Shown: positions 2,647 to 54,319 of the stretch, in pieces | Layout: each line of letters begins with the position of its first letter | Numbering within the stretch: the stretch's first letter is position 1 | DNA from: Escherichia phage vB_EcoM_DalCa | Direction: 5' to 3' (one strand) | DNA length: 64,000 nucleotides | Sequence record: NC_054908.1 | The notes under the pieces: generated by a model | The model's database searches: none | Told to the model about the DNA's origin: nothing | The model's input: the letters and a program-made list of their open reading frames with translations, nothing else | Translations under genes and position numbers: made by a program

Positions 2647-2650
2647 AACA

Positions 2651-2676
2651 AAGGGACCTTTCGGTCCCTTTTTATT
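2651..2676. terminator. bidirectional hairpin terminator between gene 24 and rnlB (AAGGGACC-TTTC-GGTCCCTT)
   Basis: 8-bp inverted repeat with 4-nt loop, T-runs on both strands; lies between convergent genes. Confidence 0.65.
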
Positions 2677-2831
2677 TAACTTACCAATTCAATCCAAGCC
2701 GGACGAAGTACATCTTGTACCATTTTAACTAATTCCTTTTTAATCAAAGAAGGATTATCTGCTTGAGTTAGAGTAATACCTTCACGAGAAGTTTCTTCCA
2801 AAATATCTTGAACAGTTAGTCCCATCACCTT

Positions 2832-3680
2832 TCAAAAATCCTTCGGACCAATTTCACCAATTTTAGAAATAACGTTATTTACTCGGTTCAGTGTAACGTA
2901 GCAAGCTAAAATTCCCACCAATTTGTTATCAGCTTCTGATAGTTCAACTTTAGCTTTAATAGGCTTATCAGACTTTTTCTTTTCACTAAATTTGGAATTC
3001 TTGCATTTGATGGCTACACGATTTCCATTATGAAGCCAAGAAGGACAACAAGGTTTCAATACATATCCTTCAGCGGTAAATACTTCGCCTTTGGCTTCAG
3101 CTTTCCAAACACATTTGTTAGCGTCAACTAATCCTGCATGGTCTACTGTAAAATTATAATCTTGGACGACAGAATCTAAATCATTTGGCAATTTAATAAG
3201 CTCTTCAAATTTACCGCGACCTAAAAGTGGAGCCATTTTAAATTTAAATGTATTACAAAATGATTCCATCATATAATCATCGACATAAGTCACATCACCA
3301 CTTTCTGTAGTGACAATAATGTCAAATACATAAAAATCTTTATCGCCATAATCGACATTCTTCTGAATGCCAGGTCCAGCGAATTCGCCAAAGACTTGAT
3401 AAGATACAACCGCTGAGGTTTCCATAATATCTTGTACTGCTTTAATAGAATCTTCGTAATTCTTTAGAATAATTTCATACCCAAAGAAATCTTCAGCAGG
3501 AAGAATTGGTCCAGTACGTTTAGCGCAAGTTACTTTATCACGCTCAATAATCAATGAGAAATTTGTGCCGTGAATCTTTTCACGAGCTACCCACTCCCCA
3601 CCAGTCAATCCCAAGCTATAAAGTTTTTCAATAAATTTAGAGTTGTAATGATTTTCAAGACTGCTATACTTTTTAAACAT
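2832..3680 (-). CDS. rnlB: RNA ligase 2 (Rnl2), terminated by in-frame TGA after 282 codons; frame continues intact for 50 more codons to 2682
   Basis: N-terminus with KIHGTN nucleotidyltransferase motif I; recognised as T4 Rnl2 (334 aa); 282 + stop + 50 = 333 codons span the full-length position. Confidence 0.85.
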
Positions 3681-3689
3681 AATTAATCC

Positions 3690-3968
3690 TCAAAATGTAA
3701 TTTCTAACCAATCACCATCACGCTGATCACTATTGACTTTAAAGCTGAATCCTTCTTTTCTCAGCCAATCACCAATTTCTTCAGTAATCAATTTATCACG
3801 AGCAATACAATAATAACTAAAATGTGTTTTACCTTGTTCAGCTGCTTTATTAGCAAGTTCCGAAAAATCTTTAATAAAACATTCTAGTTTAAACTGTTTA
3901 CTTTTAAGTGCTTTTTCTCGCAATTGATTAGCAAAAGATTCATTTTCATAAAGATCATACTGTTCCAT
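3690..3968 (-). CDS. hypothetical protein (T4 24.2 position)
   Basis: 92-aa ORF, translationally coupled to flanking ORFs. Confidence 0.7.
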   Translation of the reverse strand: MEQYDLYENESFANQLREKALKSKQFKLECFIKDFSELANKAAEQGKTHFSYYCIARDKLITEEIGDWLRKEGFSFKVNSDQRDGDWLEITF

Positions 3969-16799: not shown

Positions 16800-16850
16800 A
16801 GACTACTATAACACAACATGATGGACTTGTAAACTACATTTTGAACTTTT
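16800..16850 (-). promoter_or_regulatory. T4 early-type promoter (GTTTACA -35, 17-bp spacer, TATAGT -10) upstream of 16483..16773
   Basis: minus-strand GTTTACAAGTCCATCATGTTGTGTTATAGT; the -35 overlaps the stop codon of the upstream alt paralog. Confidence 0.6.
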
Positions 16851-18891
16851 TAGACATTCCGTTAATGTTAACCAAAGAAGCTAAGATTTGAGAAACTTCA
16901 TTTTCCTCTTCTTTTGATTCTTCTACAAGGAATTGATTAAATCCAGCCATTGGACGAACTTCACCAGTTTCCATTAGATGGTCTCCATCATATACTGATT
17001 CTTCTAATTGTTCAGAAGGAGGAACGATTGTACCTTCGATTAGATACTTGTTATAAGCAGTTTCTTTCATAAAGTACGTACTTACTTTATTAATCTTCAG
17101 TAAAATTCCACGTGGTAGAATAACTTCAGCTTCTGATGGAAATCCTGATAAATGACCCGGAACGATAACTTTGATTCGCTCAGCTCCTTTAATTACCATA
17201 CCCACGCTAGTTTCAGCATCTTCATTAGCATATGTAGAATGACTACCCATATGCATCAAATCTTCTGCATCAACAGAACCTTCTCCTTCGCCAGAAAATA
17301 CTGCACCGGAATCATCTAGAGCCATATAGTTTTTACCATGCTCACCGAAGATATTTGGTTTAAGTGATGTCGATACGAAGTTCTTGAAATAGAACATTTT
17401 ATTTTCAATATTGTGACGCAAAGTTTTAAAGGTAACTTCTTGTCCACGGTAAAGTGTAGTTCCTGGAGGAAGAACTGAACCTTTAGCGAATGCAGAATCC
17501 AGCGTCTCAATATGTTTAATAGCTCGTTCCATATATTCTTCACGGGTAGAATCTGGTTTACCCAAAAGGAACGAGTTCATTTCAACATATGAATCTGCAC
17601 AATAATCTTCAATTACGTCAGATTCAGCCTGAGTTAATCCTTTTGGAGTTACTTCAGTACTTGCATATTCATATGCCTGAGCGGCAGATTCATTAATCAA
17701 TTTATAAATGCCATTCATGACAAATTGAATAATAGCTGTCTTTTCATCTGGCGTAGCTTTAGAACCTTTAACTAAATCATTGACAATTTTCTTAATAACA
17801 TCAAAACTATTAGAAATATTAATATCAGCAAGATCGCTTAAAATTTTATCAGTTTTATAATCAAAGAATTCTTTATTCTTTAAATATTCTTGAGAACCTT
17901 GATATGTTATATCGCTCTGCAGCTTGATAGATGGATCGCGTAAACGTGCATGGGCCAATGCAATATGATTTCGGAAGTTTTCTAGTTCATAATCGTTAGA
18001 TTTAAAACGAGAAGCACTTCTCATACCACCGATAGCTCCTTTGCTAAAGTTTGAACCAATCTGAATAACGCCAGAGTTCATCGGACCTTCTGCTTTATAT
18101 ACCGGAACTTTAGATTCAAACTCTTGATATTTCTTGGCAGCAAAGCTATCACCCTGAAGTGAAGCATCAACAGTAGAATATTGAGCTTGTGCTGCTAATC
18201 GACGACTTATTTTAGTTTTCTGAATAACAGCTTGGTCCGTGCGCTTATCATTTTCTAAAGCAATAGAAGCAGCAACAGCGACAGCTTTAGGAACAGCATT
18301 TCCTGTTTTAACGTCTACATAAACATCACCGACCTTTGATTCAACTTTTGTGAATAACTCAGTTGAAATAGGAGGTACACCTGGAATGTCTTCTAAATTG
18401 GCATTTTTACGGTAAACCATAATATATGCATATTTCTTATCATAGTCCCAGATTTCCTTTAAAAGAACATATCGACCTGCTCCTTTAGTACGTACTAAAC
18501 GGTCAGCAATAACTTGCATTTGACGAGCTGCGCCATTTGTTTTACTTTTTAGTACGCGGAATAGGCATGCGTCGATTTTATACTGTTTCATTGTTTGAAG
18601 AGCAGTATCAAAAACGGCATTAATGACACCAATTGGATTTCCACCCAAGTTTCTAAGTTTAACCAGTGATAGTTTCTCATTAACACCTATCATTACGATA
18701 TGCATCATTTTATCGCCTGGCTTAACGTTTTTATTCGTATCACCACCAGAGGTGTATGTACAAAATCTAAATCCAGGAAGCACGCTTTCTTCGCCGGCTT
18801 GAATAGCAAAAATTTGTGGTATTTTATGCTTAGGATTTAAGTTAACAACCGGCGCCGAAGCGCCGTCAAATAATTCTGTAATAAGTTCCAT
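16834..18891 (-). CDS. Alt-like ADP-ribosyltransferase paralog (second, divergent full-length copy)
   Basis: 685-aa ORF; N-terminus MELITELFD and first ~230 aa similar to Alt; C-terminal region keeps TLYRG, FVSTSL and EAEVILPRG motifs. Confidence 0.85.
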   Translation of the reverse strand: MELITELFDGASAPVVNLNPKHKIPQIFAIQAGEESVLPGFRFCTYTSGGDTNKNVKPGDKMMHIVMIGVNEKLSLVKLRNLGGNPIGVINAVFDTALQTMKQYKIDACLFRVLKSKTNGAARQMQVIADRLVRTKGAGRYVLLKEIWDYDKKYAYIMVYRKNANLEDIPGVPPISTELFTKVESKVGDVYVDVKTGNAVPKAVAVAASIALENDKRTDQAVIQKTKISRRLAAQAQYSTVDASLQGDSFAAKKYQEFESKVPVYKAEGPMNSGVIQIGSNFSKGAIGGMRSASRFKSNDYELENFRNHIALAHARLRDPSIKLQSDITYQGSQEYLKNKEFFDYKTDKILSDLADINISNSFDVIKKIVNDLVKGSKATPDEKTAIIQFVMNGIYKLINESAAQAYEYASTEVTPKGLTQAESDVIEDYCADSYVEMNSFLLGKPDSTREEYMERAIKHIETLDSAFAKGSVLPPGTTLYRGQEVTFKTLRHNIENKMFYFKNFVSTSLKPNIFGEHGKNYMALDDSGAVFSGEGEGSVDAEDLMHMGSHSTYANEDAETSVGMVIKGAERIKVIVPGHLSGFPSEAEVILPRGILLKINKVSTYFMKETAYNKYLIEGTIVPPSEQLEESVYDGDHLMETGEVRPMAGFNQFLVEESKEEENEVSQILASLVNINGMSKKFKM

Positions 18892-18894
18892 GAT

Positions 18895-20949
18895 TTATCC
18901 TTGAACGAACTTGTAAGGCATGTTTGCAATATCTATACAAGACGCAATAATTCCAAGAGATGATTCTACTTTCTGTTTAACATTTGATGAAACAAATGAT
19001 GCAAAGTCAACTCTGTCTTCTACTTCAATATCACCTGTCATTGCAACCAATTCACCAGTTTCCATTAAATGGTCTCCGTCATAGATTACCGATTCGGTGA
19101 GCTCTTCCGTGGTCATAACTTCAGCTTGAATAAGCTTGTTGTTAGTTTTAACTGTTCCATCATTGTAAGATGCATCAGTTATTTTATTAACTTTGACCAT
19201 TAATCCACGTGGCAAAATAACTTCCATTTCATTTGAAGGCGCTAAACTTCCACCGGGTAAAACAACATTGACTTTATCAGCCCCAGTAATAACCCATCCA
19301 ATTCCGACTAAATTATCGCTAGAATTAACAAGCCCTTCATCATTTTTATCGATAGAAATGTTTAGACGCTTTTCATCTGGTAAAACACCAACAGCTGAAT
19401 CAGTCATCCAAGTACCAAAAATGTTTGGATATAATGATGTTGATACAAAATTTCTAAAATAAAAAACTCGATTTTTTACCAATGCTTCATATATTGAAGG
19501 TAACATTCGCTGTGAACGATATAAAGTAATACCTTTTGGCAATCGATCACCATTTTTAAAGGCTGAATCTAAATTATCAATAGCTTTTTCTATGTCAGAT
19601 GCTGTCAAAATACTTGTACGCTCATCTGGATTATATAATCCCAAAAGAGCATTATTTATGTCTACATATCCTGAACCTACGTATTCACGAATTCCGCGTT
19701 TTTGTGCTGGTGTGTATTTAGATGAATCTTTATTTTCGACTATAGGATGTAATGACCATCCAGCTGTAAGAGCATATCCACGTAATTCTCTTCGAATAAT
19801 CTTTGTTTTTATTGCATTCCAAGAATTTTGTACTAACTCATTTGCAGCATCTTGGTTTAAATGCGAATGTTTGTTAATATTTCTTTCAAACCAAGCACCT
19901 TTATATTTTTCTAAAGTATCATCGACGATAGAAGCAATAGTTTCTAAAGTTTTTATTGAAGTAATAGATTCTTTTCGTAATTTTTCTAAAGCTTTATTTT
20001 TTATTTCTGCATTAATAATGGATTCTTTATCTTCAGGAATTATAGAAGCTTCTCTGAATGCCATCCCAGCTGTAACACTGCTAAGAGCATTCTCTAGTGC
20101 AAATCCTGAAGTAGAAATTACCGTTAATTCATTAGAATCAGAAATTAAAGGCGCGTCCGCTGGTTTATTTAATTCTGCCGCTGAAGCCTCAAATTTTTGA
20201 AACATCGGTGTTTCAAATCTAGAAGATTCCAATGACTGACTTTGTGCAATTGCTCTACGGGAAATTTTAACTTTAACGATTACAGCTTGGTCAGAACGTT
20301 TATCATTTTCTTGTGCAATAGATGCTGCAATTGCCTCATTTTTGGTTACTTGAGCTCCGGTATCTTTATTGATATAAACATCACCGACCTTCGATTCAAC
20401 TTTAGTAAAGAGCTCGGTACTAATTTCCGGAACTCCTGGAATGTCTTCTAGTGATACATTTTTGCGATGTATAAGAATATATGCATACTTTTTATCATAA
20501 TCCCAGAGTTCCTTAAGAAGGACGTATCTGCCACCTGAACGACTACGGATAAGTCTATCAGCAATAACTTGAATTTGTCGAGCTTGACCAGCGGTTTTAG
20601 ACTTAAGAATACGAAGCATACAAGCATCAATTTTATACTGACGCATTGTTTGCATTGCAACAGTAAAAACTGAATTGATATAATTAATTGGGCTTGGACC
20701 AAGACCTTTTAATTTAGCAATTGAACCTTTAGCAGTTAATGTAAAAGGAACAATATGCATCATTTTATCGCCCATTTTTAAATCGCGATTAGTATCACCT
20801 CCAGATGTATAGGTACATAAACGAAAGCCTGGTTGTTCAATTGCATCATCAACATGAACTGAAAAAATTTGCGGTATTTTCTTCTTTGGATTTAAGTTTG
20901 TAATCGGAAGAGTAGTATCTTCGTCAAATAATTCTGTAATAAGTTCCAT
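18895..20949 (-). CDS. alt: Alt, ADP-ribosyltransferase packaged in the virion
   Basis: 684 aa from the second Met; recognised as T4 Alt along its length; motifs TLYRS, FVSTSL, EMEVILPRG. Confidence 0.92.
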   Translation of the reverse strand: MELITELFDEDTTLPITNLNPKKKIPQIFSVHVDDAIEQPGFRLCTYTSGGDTNRDLKMGDKMMHIVPFTLTAKGSIAKLKGLGPSPINYINSVFTVAMQTMRQYKIDACMLRILKSKTAGQARQIQVIADRLIRSRSGGRYVLLKELWDYDKKYAYILIHRKNVSLEDIPGVPEISTELFTKVESKVGDVYINKDTGAQVTKNEAIAASIAQENDKRSDQAVIVKVKISRRAIAQSQSLESSRFETPMFQKFEASAAELNKPADAPLISDSNELTVISTSGFALENALSSVTAGMAFREASIIPEDKESIINAEIKNKALEKLRKESITSIKTLETIASIVDDTLEKYKGAWFERNINKHSHLNQDAANELVQNSWNAIKTKIIRRELRGYALTAGWSLHPIVENKDSSKYTPAQKRGIREYVGSGYVDINNALLGLYNPDERTSILTASDIEKAIDNLDSAFKNGDRLPKGITLYRSQRMLPSIYEALVKNRVFYFRNFVSTSLYPNIFGTWMTDSAVGVLPDEKRLNISIDKNDEGLVNSSDNLVGIGWVITGADKVNVVLPGGSLAPSNEMEVILPRGLMVKVNKITDASYNDGTVKTNNKLIQAEVMTTEELTESVIYDGDHLMETGELVAMTGDIEVEDRVDFASFVSSNVKQKVESSLGIIASCIDIANMPYKFVQG

Positions 20950-38038: not shown

Positions 38039-38255
38039 ATTGTTTTTCCGTTAAAACAGTAATATCGTAGTAACAGTCAGAAGAAGTTTTAACTGTGGAA
38101 ATTTTATTATCAAAATACTCACGAGTCATTTTATGAGTATAATATTTTTTGCCATAAATGATAATAGGCTGATTTGGTCCTGGAACTTCTAGCTCACTTG
38201 GATTAGGAAGTGTAAAAAGAACAACGTCAGAAGTATCTTTAAATCGTAAAATCAT
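37992..38255 (-). CDS. hypothetical protein (nrdA.2 position)
   Basis: 87-aa ORF. Confidence 0.6.
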
Positions 38256-39112
38256 ATTGCCATTTTCCCTTTAATTGCTGGATGCGATTCATAATTTTCA
38301 AGGATAAAATCTTTCGGTTTCATGTATTCAGTTAACCAGTAAAGCTGTGTTTCGGTGTCACAATTTCCAAACTCTATAGGCCAATCAATTTTAAGTTCAC
38401 ATAGTTCTTTAGGCTCACGACGTAAAATTTCTTTACATTGCTCAGTATGATTCATATAGATGTGAGTATTACCACCAGAAAATATCAAATCTCCTGGGAT
38501 AAGATTACACATCTTAGCCACAATATGCGTCAAGGCAGCGTACGAGGCAATGTTGAATGGCAATCCCAAGAAAACATCTACACTTCTTTGGTACCATTGT
38601 AAATCAAGATAACCATTACGCACATTAAACTGATAGAACATATGACAGGGCGGTAATGCCATTTGATTGATTTCAGCTGGATTCCATGCTGAAACGATTT
38701 GACGTCGATCAGTTGGTAATTTTTTAATACGATCAATAGTTTCAACTAATTGATCCACACCGCCGAAATCACGCCATTGTTTACCGTATATAGGACCAAG
38801 TTCACCACTATGATATCCTAGGTCTTTAGCCTGGTTTTCATAGTTATCGTCCCAAATAGTTTTACCTTGAATAAGACTACCATGTGTGCGAAGACGTAAA
38901 TCATTAACATTGGTAGAACCGGAAATAAACCATAGAAGCTCAGCAATGCATGCATTCCACGCAAGCTTCTTAGTTGTTACCGCAGGAAAACCTTTAGTTA
39001 AATCCCAACGTAATTTAGTACCGAACAAAGCAATTGTTCCTGTGCCTGTTCGGTCATCGGTTTCATAGCCATTTTCAAAAATGTCTTTAATTAAATCTTG
39101 GTATTGTTTCAT
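38252..39112 (-). CDS. td: thymidylate synthase, uninterrupted
   Basis: 286-aa continuous ORF; active-site region ALPPCH. Confidence 0.93.
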
Positions 39113-39157: not shown

Positions 39158-39505
39158 TCAATACGGTTTAGCATCAAATTTTCTCTCAATTTCAGGCGTG
39201 AAATATAATTCTTTACCGCGTTTGGAAAAGCGACCAATAATATGATAATTATTCTCATCAAACGTGATATTACCAATATCCATAGCTTTCAACCAAATAT
39301 CGATATTTCTATCCAGCTTTATGTCAAAATTCCAATACGGTGAACTATTACCGAAAATACTGCAAGCGGATTCAGTGAAACAACTGCTATAAATCTTGTC
39401 TTTAGGAACTACTAATTGATAGACACCTTTAATAAACTGAGGACCCTGCCACTTTGGCTGTTTCGTGTCTTTTTCTAATAGAATAGGGTAATAATTAAAA
39501 TTCAT
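39158..39505 (-). CDS. hypothetical protein inserted between frd and td
   Basis: 115-aa ORF, no recognised motif. Confidence 0.6.
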   Translation of the reverse strand: MNFNYYPILLEKDTKQPKWQGPQFIKGVYQLVVPKDKIYSSCFTESACSIFGNSSPYWNFDIKLDRNIDIWLKAMDIGNITFDENNYHIIGRFSKRGKELYFTPEIERKFDAKPY

Positions 39506-39524: not shown

Positions 39525-40354
<830 letters not shown>

Positions 40355-40745: not shown

Positions 40746-41111
40746 CTACTTTTTGAAAGTTTTTCGCAAAAGTTCAATGATTTCATCTACATTGTTTTCG
40801 TCAACAATGCAGTGAATTTTTGTTACGCCAGAAACTTTGTCTTTGACTTCATCTTCTTCAGAAGTCGGTTCTTTATACTCACGAAAACAATGAAATTCGT
40901 CTTCACAAACGTTAAAGTAAAAATGCTTTCCATTTGCGCATTCAATGTGTTTTATTACTCTAAATCCATCAACAAAGAAAGCTTCTTTAACTTCAAACCA
41001 TCCGCCATTTTCTTGAATAATTTTAACTATTGCTGAATTAGAACGTGGGCGATAATTAATAAATGTATCAATAAGTCTTGGAACAAGTTCATACTTTTTA
41101 CCGATATACAT
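40746..41111 (-). CDS. hypothetical protein (frd.3 position)
   Basis: 121-aa ORF preceded by an early-type promoter at about 40705..40750. Confidence 0.6.
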   Translation of the reverse strand: MYIGKKYELVPRLIDTFINYRPRSNSAIVKIIQENGGWFEVKEAFFVDGFRVIKHIECANGKHFYFNVCEDEFHCFREYKEPTSEEDEVKDKVSGVTKIHCIVDENNVDEIIELLRKTFKK

Positions 41112-41155
41112 TATGTTTTCCTCATTTTAACGGGGCTGTAATAGCCCCTTGATAA

Positions 41156-41383
41156 TTATTGTTCAATCAATCCCATGTAAAATTCTGCGTCTTCAGAATC
41201 CATACCATCACAATATTCATTAGCCATAAAGCGGGTGAGGTCTTCAAGAGGACCTTCAATAACGATTTGAATACTCCAAAACTTAGAATCTTGCACGCTT
41301 GTGATACTAAGTTCAGGATAACGATTACGAATAATTTCTTCGATATATTCAAAATCAACGATGTCAATATCAACTTTAGCCAT
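41156..41383 (-). CDS. hypothetical acidic protein
   Basis: 75 aa from the internal Met with GAGGAAA Shine-Dalgarno; the longer track ORF runs into the promoter. Confidence 0.6.
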
Positions 41384-41421
41384 ATTATTTTCCTCTTTAA
41401 TCATCAGCAGTATTGCCGATA

Positions 41422-41482
41422 GTTGTATAGTACCATGGAAGGACAAGGATGTAAACCGTTTTGTGAAAAAATTTTTGAAATA
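41422..41482 (-). promoter_or_regulatory. T4 early-type promoter (UP element, GTTTACA -35, -10 TACTATAC) for 41156..41383
   Basis: member of a near-identical ~65-bp repeat family (also 58270..58330 and 61914..61972). Confidence 0.65.
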
Positions 41483-41486
41483 AAAA

Positions 41487-41505
41487 GGGGACCTCTAGGG
41501 TCCCC
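41487..41505 (-). terminator. hairpin (GGGGACC-TCTAG-GGTCCCC) downstream of gene 32
   Basis: 7-bp GC stem directly after the gene 32 stop. Confidence 0.55.
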
Positions 41506-41527
41506 AATTAATTAGTAATATAATCTA

Positions 41528-42436
41528 TTAAAGGTCATTCAAAAGGTCATCTAGGTCCGTGTCATCAGCACTAGATGAACTGCCAGAGCTTGAGCTCATA
41601 AAATCATCTTCAGTTTTTGTATTGAAGTCATCAACATTGAATGCATCCAAATCATCAGCAACTTTATCAGCTTTCTTAGCAGCAGTTGCAGCAGCACCGC
41701 CCATCACAGCAGTTCCCATAACTTGACCGAATTTAGTGCTCAGTTCTTCAAACGATTTGAATTTATCTTTAGAAGTCATTTCAGAAAGGTCAACCATTTG
41801 TTCGAACAGTTCTTTCTGGAAAGATTCATCGTCAATGTTTGGAATCGCAGATTGATTCAGGAATTTAGATTCGTCGTAGTTACTAAATCCAGAAACCTGT
41901 TTAACTTTCAGTACAAAGTTAGCACCTTCCCACGGACAAGTTACATCAACCGGAGTTTCACCCATTTCAACATCAACTGCAATCATTGCGTTGATTTTAT
42001 CCCAGATTTTCTTACCGAAACGGTATTTAAATACTTTACCTTCATTTTCTGGAGCAGCTGGGTCTTTTACTACAAGAATGTTAGCCCAGTAAGAAGTTTT
42101 ACGTTTAACAAGACCGTACTCTTTATTGTCAGTGTTATACAAATCATTTTTACTGATGTACTGACATACTGGACAAGAATCGTAATCACCGTGGGTAGAT
42201 GAACAGTTTTCAATATACCATTTACCATTTTTCTTGAAACCGTGATTTACAAGAATTGCGAATGGTGCTTGTTCATCATTTTTAGACGGAAGAAAACGAA
42301 TTACTGCTTGACCGTTACCCGCATTGTCGAGTTTCAGTTTCCACTCGCCTTTATCTTCAGAAGAAAAACCACCTTTATTTCCAGCCAGTTTAGCCATTTG
42401 TGCAGCGAGTTCAGCAGTAGATTTACGTTTAAACAT
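41528..42436 (-). CDS. 32: gp32 single-stranded DNA-binding protein
   Basis: 302-aa ORF recognised as T4 gp32, including acidic Ser/Asp-rich C-terminus. Confidence 0.95.
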
Positions 42437-50516: not shown

Positions 50517-53483
50517 ATGGCTACTTTAAAACAAATACAATTTAAAAGAAGTAAAACTGCAGGTCAACGTCCTGCTGCTTCAGTATTAGCCGAAGGTGAA
50601 TTGGCTATAAACTTAAAAGATAAAACAATTTTCACAAAAGATGACTCAGGTAGTGTTATAGAATTAGGTTTAAAATATGGAGGAACAATTGATGGTTCTT
50701 TAACTGTTAATGGAAACATAATTGGAAATTTAACAGGTAACGCTGCAACTGCAACGAAATTAAAAACAGCACGAAAAATTAATGGTATATCCTTTGATGG
50801 GTCAAAAGATATCACGCTAACTCCATCTGACATAAATGTCAATAGCACAACGTTTATAAAAAATAACGGCGAATTACCTGTTGATGCTAATTTAGATGAG
50901 TATGGGCCTGTTGAAGAATATCTTGGAGTTTGGTCGAAAGCAACTTCAACCAACGCTCAACCAGCAAATAAATTTCCAGAAGAAAATGCTGTAGGTGTTC
51001 TAGAAGTATTTGTGGCCGGTCAATTTGCTGGTACTCAGAGATATACAACTAGATACGGAAATGTTTATATTCGTTCCTTGACTGCTACATGGAACGGAGT
51101 AAACGGTCCGTGGAGTGCGTGGCGAAATATTCAATCTGGTACTCGTCCACTGTCAACAACGATTGATCTTAATGATCTAGGAGGCGCTGAACACCTTGGT
51201 TTGTGGCGAAATAGTTCAAATTCCATTGCTACCTTTGACAGAAATTTCCCAGAAGAAGGATCGTCCGCTCAAGGACTTTTAGAAGTATATGAAGGTGGAA
51301 ACTATTCTCGCACACAGAGATATACGACCAGATTTGGTGTTGTTTATACTCGTTGTCTTGCTGCTGCGTGGGATGCTTCTGCGCCTAAATGGGGACCTTG
51401 GCAACAAGTCGGTAATGTCACACCGGCGACTTTCTATGACGGAGATCTGAATGATTTTAAAACTCCTGGGTTATATAATATTTTAGGCACTGATGCCGTT
51501 ATTAACTGTCCTACCGGTGAAGGTTTACCAGCCGTTATTGTTGGTTTGCTGGAAGTTAAACAGCGTGCTTCTGGTGGTGCTATTTTCCAAAAATTTACTA
51601 CTGCCGGAACGGGTGCAACTACTCGCGATCGTATTTTTGAGCGTGCATATACTGGTGGTGTGTGGGGTGCATGGAACGAAGTATATACATCTTATTCCCT
51701 GCCAATTACTTTGGGTATGGGTGGTATTAAAACTCAATTAGCGGAGTTAGATTGGCAAACCTTTGATTTTGTCCCTGGTAGTATGTTTAGTGTTCCTTTG
51801 AACAAAATAAAGAATATGCCAGCAAATATGGATTGGGGCACGATTGATGGAAACCTGGTTATGTTTTCCGTTGGTCCTAGCGAACACACTAGCACAGGAC
51901 GTACTGTTCAGATTTGGCGCGGCACCGTATCCCAGACAAACTACCGTTATTTTGTCGTTCGTGTGTTCGGTAATTCTGGAAATAGAACTTGCACAGTTCG
52001 TCGTGTTGTTCTTGAAGACGGATCACATACTTGGACTGCTAAACAAGATTTTAATGGCGCAGTTAACTTTAACTCTACTGTTAACCTTAATAACACTACC
52101 ACATTTAAAACAGAAGTTAAATTTCGCTCATTGAATGCATTCCGTATGTATGGCGGAAAATTTGGTACATTTTTACGTAATGATGGAGAGAGTCTTTATA
52201 TTCTTTCCACCGACGAAGATGATCAAGATGGAAACTTTAATACAAATAGACCTTTCCGTTATGAATTAAGAACTGGTGATGTTACTTTGGGTGGTGCTAG
52301 TGGTGCTAACGTTTTAAAATTAAAACGTGATTCTCTCACCGCATTTTTTGGCGGTGATATTAACATTAAAGGCATGATGACTTTTGACGCCGGACGTTTA
52401 GGATCACGAGATTATTTTAAATTTAACCATTGGGGTGATAGTAATAATGCGCGTGATAACATTATTCAGTTAGAAGACAGCAAAGGCGCTCATTTTTCCA
52501 CTGAACGTACTTTAGCGACTGGTGCAATTAAGACTAAATTTTTTGGTGAAATTGAATCCGATGGTAAATTGGTTATTAAACGTCCGGGTGATTCTATTGT
52601 ATTATCAACAACTGCTAGTAATTCTTTGCATATTCGCGGTGATATAGACGGGACTGGTAACTGGTATATTGGTAAAGGTGGTGCTGATAATGGATTAGCG
52701 TTCTATAGTTATGCTACTAATGCTGGTGTATACATTACAAACGCAGGAGATATCTCGCTAAGTCCAAAGGGTGCCGAAATGGCTCAGGTCAATAACGTTC
52801 GATTATATGTTCATGGTGAACGTTGGACCGCTAGTCAACCAGGTGATTGGGGCAGTCAGTGGCAAGTGGAAGCGCCAATATTCGTCGATCATGGTTATGT
52901 TGGACCAGATAGCTATTATCCAATTATTAAAGGAAGAAGTGTAATCACCAATCAAGGGTTTGTAACTGCCGTCGATCTTGGTATTCGTCGTGTCCCTAAC
53001 AATTGGGGGCAAGCAATTATTCGTGTTGGATCTGCAGAGGCATCGCCAGCGGCTGGACACCCTAACGCGGTATTTGAATTTCATTACGACGGTACTTTCT
53101 ATTCTCCTGGTAATGGTAACTTTAACGATGTGTATATTCGTTCCGATGGTCGTCTTAAGATTAATAAAAAAGAGCTAGAAAACGGAGCACTTGAAAAAGT
53201 ATGCCGACTGAAAGTTTATACATACGATAAGGTTAAGTCTATTAAAGATCGTAGTGTTATTAAACGTGAAGTTGGTATTATTGCTCAGGATCTTGAAAAA
53301 GAATTACCGGAAGCTGTGTCTAAAGTTGAAGTTGATGGATCTGATGTTCTGACAATTTCTAACTCCGCTGTGAATGCTCTTTTAATTAAGGCTATCCAAG
53401 AAATGAGCGAAGAAATTAAAGAATTAAAAACGCCTTTCTTCACTAAAATTGCTCGCAAAATTAGTAAATATTTTAAATTCTAA
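50517..53483 (+). CDS. 37: long tail fibre distal subunit gp37 with C-terminal intramolecular-chaperone-like domain
   Basis: 988-aa ORF; C-terminal ~115 aa contains IRSDGRLK (SDxRxK-like) and amphipathic [17 protein letters not shown] segment. Confidence 0.9.
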
Positions 53484-53518
53484 CAACAAGGGGGCAACGC
53501 CCCCTTTGGAGATAAATT

Positions 53519-54319
53519 ATGGCAGTAGTTGGTGTTCCTGGTTGGATTGGTAGTTCATCCGTAAATGAAACAGGACAACGATGGATGAGTCAAGCGGCTG
53601 GTCAATTAAGATTGGGTGTTCCTTGCTGGATGAGTCAATTTGCAGGTCGCTCACGAGAAATTATTCATACACTTGGAGCAGACCATAACTTCAATGGTCA
53701 ATGGTTCCGAGATAGATGTTTTGAGGCCGGTAGTGCACCTATAGTGTTTAATATTACAGGTGATTTAGTATCATATTCTAAAGATGTTCCTTTATTCTTC
53801 ATGTACGGGGATACGCCTAATGAATATGTTGTTCTTAATATTCATGGTGGTGTTCATATGTGGGGTCGTGGTGGTAATGGTGGATACACTCACTCGGGAG
53901 GCGACGGTAACGGTACACAAGGCGGTCATGTTATTCAAAATGATATCGGTGGACGGCTTCGTATTTGGAACTACGGTGTTATAGCTGCTGGCGGTGGCGG
54001 CGGTGGTGGTATTGCATATCGTCCACACTCAGGGGCAAACTGGCAAGATATCGGTGGCGGTGGTGGTCGACCTTTCGGTGGCGCTGGCGGTGGCGGTTAT
54101 TCCGGTGGTGCTGCTTCGTATGAAGGTCCGGGTGGTGGTTATGACTATGGTAACGCACACTCCGGCGCAGGTGGTAATGCTGGTGCTGCTGGTCAGAATG
54201 CATGGTCTGACGGCGGTAAAGTTCTTAAAGTTGGTGTTGGTGGTGCGTCTGGTCATGCAGTGTTTGGGTCTTCTCCAACTTGGGGTGCTGTTGGAACAAT
54301 TTACGGACCAAGAGTATAA
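53519..54319 (+). CDS. 38: gp38 tail-fibre tip adhesin, T2 type (glycine-rich motifs interleaved with variable segments)
   Basis: 266-aa ORF; N-terminal gp37-attachment-like region, then repeated poly-Gly blocks separated by short variable stretches. Confidence 0.88.

Follow-up and report, generated by a model that had tools for sequence, protein, structure and literature searches.

The rnlB gene of Escherichia phage vB_EcoM_DalCa, which encodes RNA ligase 2 (Rnl2, gp24.1), is interrupted by an in-frame TGA at codon 283, and the remainder of its frame stays open behind the stop. With a probability of roughly 0.6, this is a genuine mutation that arose very recently and inactivates a dispensable gene. 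In the proposed course of events, a very recent G-to-T change would have converted the codon of the invariant Gly283 into TGA in a single Tequatrovirus lineage, and translation by the standard code would end there, releasing Rnl2(1-282). In this product the adenylyltransferase domain would be whole, and the helical C domain would be cut to half, without the KVMGLT..D292 segment and the last two helices. Such a protein could at most adenylylate itself and join pre-adenylylated ends, with neither binding nor sealing of nicked duplex RNA. The phage enzyme concerned is a textbook one, and its interruption, a private nonsense allele or a miscalled base, is ordinary and nothing categorically new.

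The rnlB frame and the identity of its product

The stretch analysed (the window, 64,000 nucleotides of record NC_054908.1) represents 64 kb of a Tequatrovirus (T4-like) genome with genes 23 and 24, rnlB, 24.2, 24.3, hoc, inh and uvsW through to rIIB. On its minus strand, the complete rnlB frame occupies 2676..3680 and consists of 334 codons plus a TAA. It begins with an ATG at 3680-3678, seen in the sequence and in the list of open reading frames, and 6 nt upstream of this codon a GAGGA Shine-Dalgarno sequence (3687..3691, minus strand) overlaps the TGA stop of gene 24.2. The translated part (2835..3680, minus strand) comprises 282 sense codons, the last residues being IGPKDF, and is followed by the premature TGA at 2832..2834, which the earlier note had reported after codon 282 and which is indeed present in both the sequence and the ORF list. 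Beyond the TGA, the untranslated remnant (2679..2831, minus strand) holds codons 284-334, corresponding to the second half of the C domain with the invariant Asp292, until the original terminator TAA at 2678-2676 closes the frame. The frame had been described as open past the stop for 50 codons, as far as 2682; its openness was confirmed, but it contains 51 sense codons (KVMGLTVQDIL...RPAWIELVS, translated as 51 residues) and ends at 2679, or at 2676 with the stop. A total of about 334 residues, as in T4 Rnl2, had also been proposed, and the codon sum of 282 + 1 + 51 = 334 agrees with the length of the T4 enzyme.

The assignment to rnlB made in the same note was borne out by a phmmer search of the PDB, in which the stop-masked 334-residue translation matched T4 Rnl2 (2HVQ) over residues 1-334 with E = 6e-223. 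The translation shares about 98.5% of its residues with the crystallised T4 Rnl2, the only differences from 2HVQ being E76A, K194N, C212Y and H217R, besides the stop. At the DNA level, rnlB is 99.6% identical to the gene of phages Pinarejo and U115. The motif EKIHGT in the product is the same as that of T4 Rnl2 around Lys35, the motif I (KxxG) lysine. Two Pfam domains were found, of which RNA_ligase (PF09414), the adenylyltransferase domain, is intact at residues 29-226 (E = 8e-23), and T4_Rnl2_C (PF18043) spans residues 246-322 of the full frame (E = 6e-24 with the glycine restored). The downstream frame is more than a chance opening. Given the base composition, a run of 51 codons without a stop has P ~0.02, and, as the stronger evidence, residues 284-334 of the tail are identical, residue for residue, to those of T4 Rnl2 and match the second half of T4_Rnl2_C.

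Sequence, domains and genome position all place the gene firmly in the Rnl2 family. T4 Rnl2 (gp24.1; PDB 2HVQ/2HVR/2HVS) is the product of the same gene, with a 334-codon frame and both Pfam domains, and T4 rnlB occupies the same slot as in DalCa, where gp24 converges on it and hoc, 24.3 and 24.2 lie upstream. DalCa differs from T4 in carrying TGA rather than GGA at codon 283 and in the four substitutions, of which Cys212 is private to DalCa.

The stop at Gly283 is private to one genome

The interruption arises from one G-to-T change (minus strand) at position 2834, which turns GGA into TGA and the context GATTTTGGAAAG into GATTTTTGAAAG (T4GG to T5G). The earlier note had given a Gly codon, GGA, as the original at this place. 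This proved correct, as the residue is glycine in 2HVQ and the aligned codon is GGA in Pinarejo, U115, ACG-C40 and HY03, with G at the changed base in the relatives. A megablast search with rnlB returned 684 phage records, the best of them at 99.6% identity (Pinarejo, U115 and ESh30) and none at 100%. An 81-nt query with the stop at its centre matched 323 phage records, none of them identical to it. Furthermore, the exact 23-mer spanning the TGA had no match in IMG/VR, in 185,579 prokaryotic species (one genome each) or in 241 million metagenome records. Because the exact wild-type 23-mer matched only a single IMG/VR contig, the scans were redone with patterns made degenerate at the wobble positions. 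The GGA control was then found in 12 viral contigs in IMG/VR and the TGA pattern in 0. Five metagenome contigs matching the degenerate TGA pattern were set aside as chance hits, none of them having Rnl2 homology at the site. The exact 282-residue product likewise had no match among recorded proteins.

By these comparisons, the Gly283 stop is private to the DalCa genome. The related T-even phages lack it, and the 153 nt that follow the TGA are identical to those of the closest relatives, Pinarejo and U115. To judge by the sequence downstream of it, which is unchanged with respect to the relatives, the stop is very recent. A private stop before an undiverged frame supports the reading, offered in the earlier note, of a recent nonsense mutation or sequencing error. 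The same note had considered a naturally truncated enzyme, which would imply a conserved and selected state; the stop, however, is conserved nowhere.

The constraint on the site was assessed with an orthologue set of 35 IMG/VR loci containing Rnl2 relatives of 43-99% identity, of which 33 have intact ORFs of 328-336 codons. Gly283 is invariant in all 33 intact orthologues, down to 43% identity, and the motif around it, K280-D-F-G-K-V-M-G-L-T..Q-D292, is nearly invariant in the 33-orthologue alignment. Arg266 and Asp292 are both invariant in the intact orthologues. Mean column identity in the alignment is 0.73 for the 51-residue tail versus 0.74 for the catalytic domain. Position 212 is variable across the family (Y/V/I/T/K).

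Domains and the expected effect of the truncation

The TGA falls in the middle of the C domain, between profile positions 38 and 40 of the 82 positions of T4_Rnl2_C. Translated residues 246-282 correspond to profile positions 2-38 and the tail after the stop to positions 40-81, so that the predicted 282-residue product has only part of the C-terminal domain, a defining feature of the Rnl2 family, although the DNA frame encodes it whole. The 51-residue tail, modelled alone, is predicted to form two helices at approximately 290-299 and 310-333, with a pLDDT of 67 that suits the model to secondary structure use only. A single-sequence AlphaFold model of the 282-residue product reached a pLDDT of 33, too low for a fold search.

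According to PMC3149579 and PMC3884662, the N domain of Rnl2 (1-243) is enough for adenylylation of the ligase (step 1) and for making the phosphodiester bond where the end is already adenylylated (step 3), and the C domain (244-329) is required for transfer of AMP to the 5'-PO4 (step 2). According to the same two sources, the isolated N domain does not seal nicks and is impaired in binding them. In the structure of full-length Rnl2, a salt bridge between Arg266 and Asp292 is thought, according to PMC4599027, to support the integrity of the C domain; with a stop at codon 283, Arg266 is retained and Asp292 is lost.

The closest engineered likeness is T4 Rnl2(1-249), known as Rnl2tr (PDB 1S68), which shares with the predicted DalCa product an intact adenylyltransferase domain and the want of a functional C domain. 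The DalCa product differs in that it is predicted to end at residue 282, with half a C domain of about 38 residues still attached. By analogy, Rnl2(1-282) would at best behave like Rnl2(1-249), with steps 1 and 3 kept and step 2 and nick binding lost. The half C domain may also misfold or destabilise the protein. Either way, we infer that its normal function, the ATP-dependent sealing of 3'-OH/5'-PO4 nicks in duplex RNA, would be lost, which would effectively amount to loss of function.

Dispensability and other broken copies of rnlB

rnlB is not known as an essential gene of T4, and viable isolates with broken copies likewise indicate that it is dispensable. The window contains undamaged copies of rnlA and pseT, the tRNA-repair pair. 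Where gp24 and rnlB converge, a strong bidirectional intrinsic terminator hairpin was found at 2650..2671, acting on both strands, with a perfect 9-bp stem, five GC pairs and T-runs on both strands; it starts 5 nt after the rnlB TAA. As this terminator makes rnlB the last gene of its unit, the premature stop can have no polar effect on genes further down. Loss of rnlB would be tolerated because the gene is dispensable for plaque growth, is the last of its unit, and is accompanied by intact rnlA and pseT. PMC4599027 describes the biological role of Rnl2 as unknown outside the kinetoplastids.

Broken copies of rnlB were found in roughly 6 of about 150 T4-like genomes examined (~4%), mostly of cultured phages and including plaque-forming isolates. 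ACG-C40 carries a W215* nonsense change and HY03 a 1-nt deletion near codon 113 that shifts the frame, BYEP02 has gained about 77 nt by insertion near codon 68, and two IMG/VR loci (L037 and L041) each contain a frameshift. In the Mosigvirus AV111 (OR352941.1, 301-1300), rnlB is annotated as two CDS of 248 and 81 residues, split almost exactly at the boundary between the N and C domains (about codon 248), which corresponds in nature to the engineered Rnl2(1-249) accompanied by a separate C domain. These alleles resemble that of DalCa in being independent, lineage-private lesions in an otherwise well-conserved frame, but each differs in position and kind from the rest, and none has a stop at Gly283. 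Such recurrent lesions form the pattern expected of a conditionally useful and easily lost accessory gene, or of scattered sequencing errors.

Mutation or consensus error

If the stop is a sequencing or assembly artefact, the DNA would really read GGA, TTTTGG having been miscalled as TTTTTG, and rnlB would be intact and functional. Such an origin is less likely than a real mutation. It would account for the kind of change, in which one base is altered where a T-run ends on its 3' side, so that the T-run gains a nucleotide and the G-run loses one with the frame kept, as in a typical homopolymer-boundary miscall, and the boundary of a homopolymer is a miscall-prone context on some platforms. The occurrence of the Gly283 TGA allele in no other record searched also suits an artefact, as do another private base change within rnlB and the broken rnlB in about 4% of deposited relatives, some of which are perhaps errors too. 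However, substitution errors are rare in a finished consensus, and an assembly prone to homopolymer errors should give frameshifts, yet of the approximately 100 other conserved genes in the 64 kb none is frameshifted or interrupted.

The integrity of the genes was checked by tblastn against the window, with the 101 annotated proteins of Paracelsus, a close relative, as templates. Among the roughly 100 conserved genes checked, rnlB is the only one with a genuine in-frame stop, and no frameshifted gene was found in the 64-kb window with these templates. The clean state of the rest of the assembly speaks against a sequencing platform that often miscalls homopolymers. The frd gene (window 39525-40136, minus strand; 41041-41649 in the Paracelsus record) was rejected as a second broken gene. 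Its Paracelsus start appears to be annotated 9 codons too far upstream, and the TGA that DalCa has there lies within this over-extended part; the true frd ORF, beginning with the canonical MIKLVF..., is whole and intact.

An alignment of 4 kb with five relatives revealed only two window-private sites, 2834 (G283*) and 3046 (Y212C), both of which lie in rnlB and are non-synonymous. The second, with the changed base at 3046, turns the Tyr212 codon TAT into the Cys codon TGT (3045..3047, minus strand), and 0 of 435 matching phage records are identical across that site. The chance of both private changes landing in rnlB is about 0.06. Two private non-synonymous sites in one dispensable gene fit relaxed selection better than random error, and they hint at relaxed constraint in the DalCa lineage, being too few for proof.

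Read-through, recoding and re-initiation

UGA followed by A is a relatively weak stop context, and the base right after the rnlB TGA is A. In leaky or programmed read-through, a host Trp-tRNA would decode the UGA to give Rnl2(1-282) together with full-length G283W, in a ratio that is perhaps functional; this is very unlikely to explain the allele. Low-frequency decoding of UGA by Trp-tRNA in competition with RF2 is on record for E. coli (PMC10570021), and the frame downstream of the rnlB TGA is intact. Basal leakage, however, would yield a minor product only, and the tryptophan would replace a glycine invariant in 33 of 33 orthologues, within the KDFGKVMGL motif. Moreover, the stop is conserved in no relative, and hence nothing has been selected. 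No stimulatory or SECIS-like hairpin was found in the 76 nt from the UGA, where the minimum free energy of -10.8 kcal/mol does not improve on shuffled sequence (mean -12.6, z = +0.71), and no tRNA gene, suppressors included, lies within the 64-kb window. No read-through element can have evolved, because the relatives with a sense codon at this place have an identical sequence downstream. The read-through enzyme suggested earlier is therefore disfavoured, there being no recoding signal and an invariant glycine in the place of the stop.

Alternatively, the enzyme might be split, so that ribosomes re-initiating just past the UGA would make a tail of 49-50 residues that rejoins Rnl2(1-282) and restores the C domain; such an arrangement is extremely improbable. 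Candidate weak re-initiation codons, GTG at 2828-2826 and ATG at 2825-2823 (2823..2828, minus strand), do stand 3 and 6 nt past the TGA, and the ORF list contains a 50-residue ORF starting from that GTG. The isolated tail is predicted as two helices, and the two ORFs of AV111 rnlB show that two-piece arrangements exist in deposited genomes. Neither the GTG nor the ATG has a well-spaced Shine-Dalgarno sequence, however, as far as can be read from the sequence. The break also falls mid-domain, in an invariant motif rather than at a domain boundary, and a two-piece arrangement at Gly283 is kept in no relative. Complementation between fragments of Rnl2 is not known. An alternative genetic code with TGA as a sense codon was ruled out, as TGA is an ordinary terminator that ends 32 of 96 conserved window genes, including those of DNA ligase, nrdA, gp52 and motA, and stands internally in rnlB only.

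Other features of the window

Several further observations were made in comparing the window with Paracelsus. The td gene for thymidylate synthase (38252-39112, minus strand) is an uninterrupted ORF of 286 residues, from which the group I intron and homing endonuclease of Paracelsus are absent. Between td and frd, an ORF of 115 residues (39158-39505, minus strand) had no match in tblastn with the Paracelsus CDS as queries, and the small Paracelsus ORF bas36_0071 found no match in the window; from the sequences, this looks like a small cassette swap. The distal half of gp37, the long tail fibre, and the adhesin gp38 (64% identity) are sharply diverged from Paracelsus at 50517-54316 (plus strand), between neighbours that are 99-100% identical. 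This divergence suggests a swapped receptor-binding tip and possibly an altered host range. Two tandem paralogues of alt, an ADP-ribosyltransferase gene, lie at 16843-20949 (minus strand) with about 41% mutual identity, and are likewise found in Paracelsus and other relatives.

Meaning of the interrupted ligase

The truncation might be supposed not to be neutral, in that Rnl2(1-282), with or without a minor share of read-through or re-initiated product, would be a selected natural Rnl2tr that adenylylates itself and joins only pre-adenylylated RNA ends. Nothing found lends this idea positive support, and it is exceedingly unlikely to hold. If it were true, an altered specificity of RNA repair would be kept for its help against host RNA-targeting defence, and the recurrent splits of rnlB, such as that of AV111 at the domain boundary, would be convergent rather than accidental.

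For annotation, the locus is best labelled as an interrupted rnlB, either a pseudogene or a possible sequencing error, and not as two genes. Under the preferred reading of a real and very recent loss of function, DalCa would be a strain that lacks a working rnlB by nature and keeps rnlA and pseT whole, and it could be compared with its close intact relatives Pinarejo or U115 on hosts with RNA-cleaving defences. In the wider group of T4-like phages, the lesion frequency of about 4% suggests that rnlB is useful only under some conditions and easily lost in propagation.
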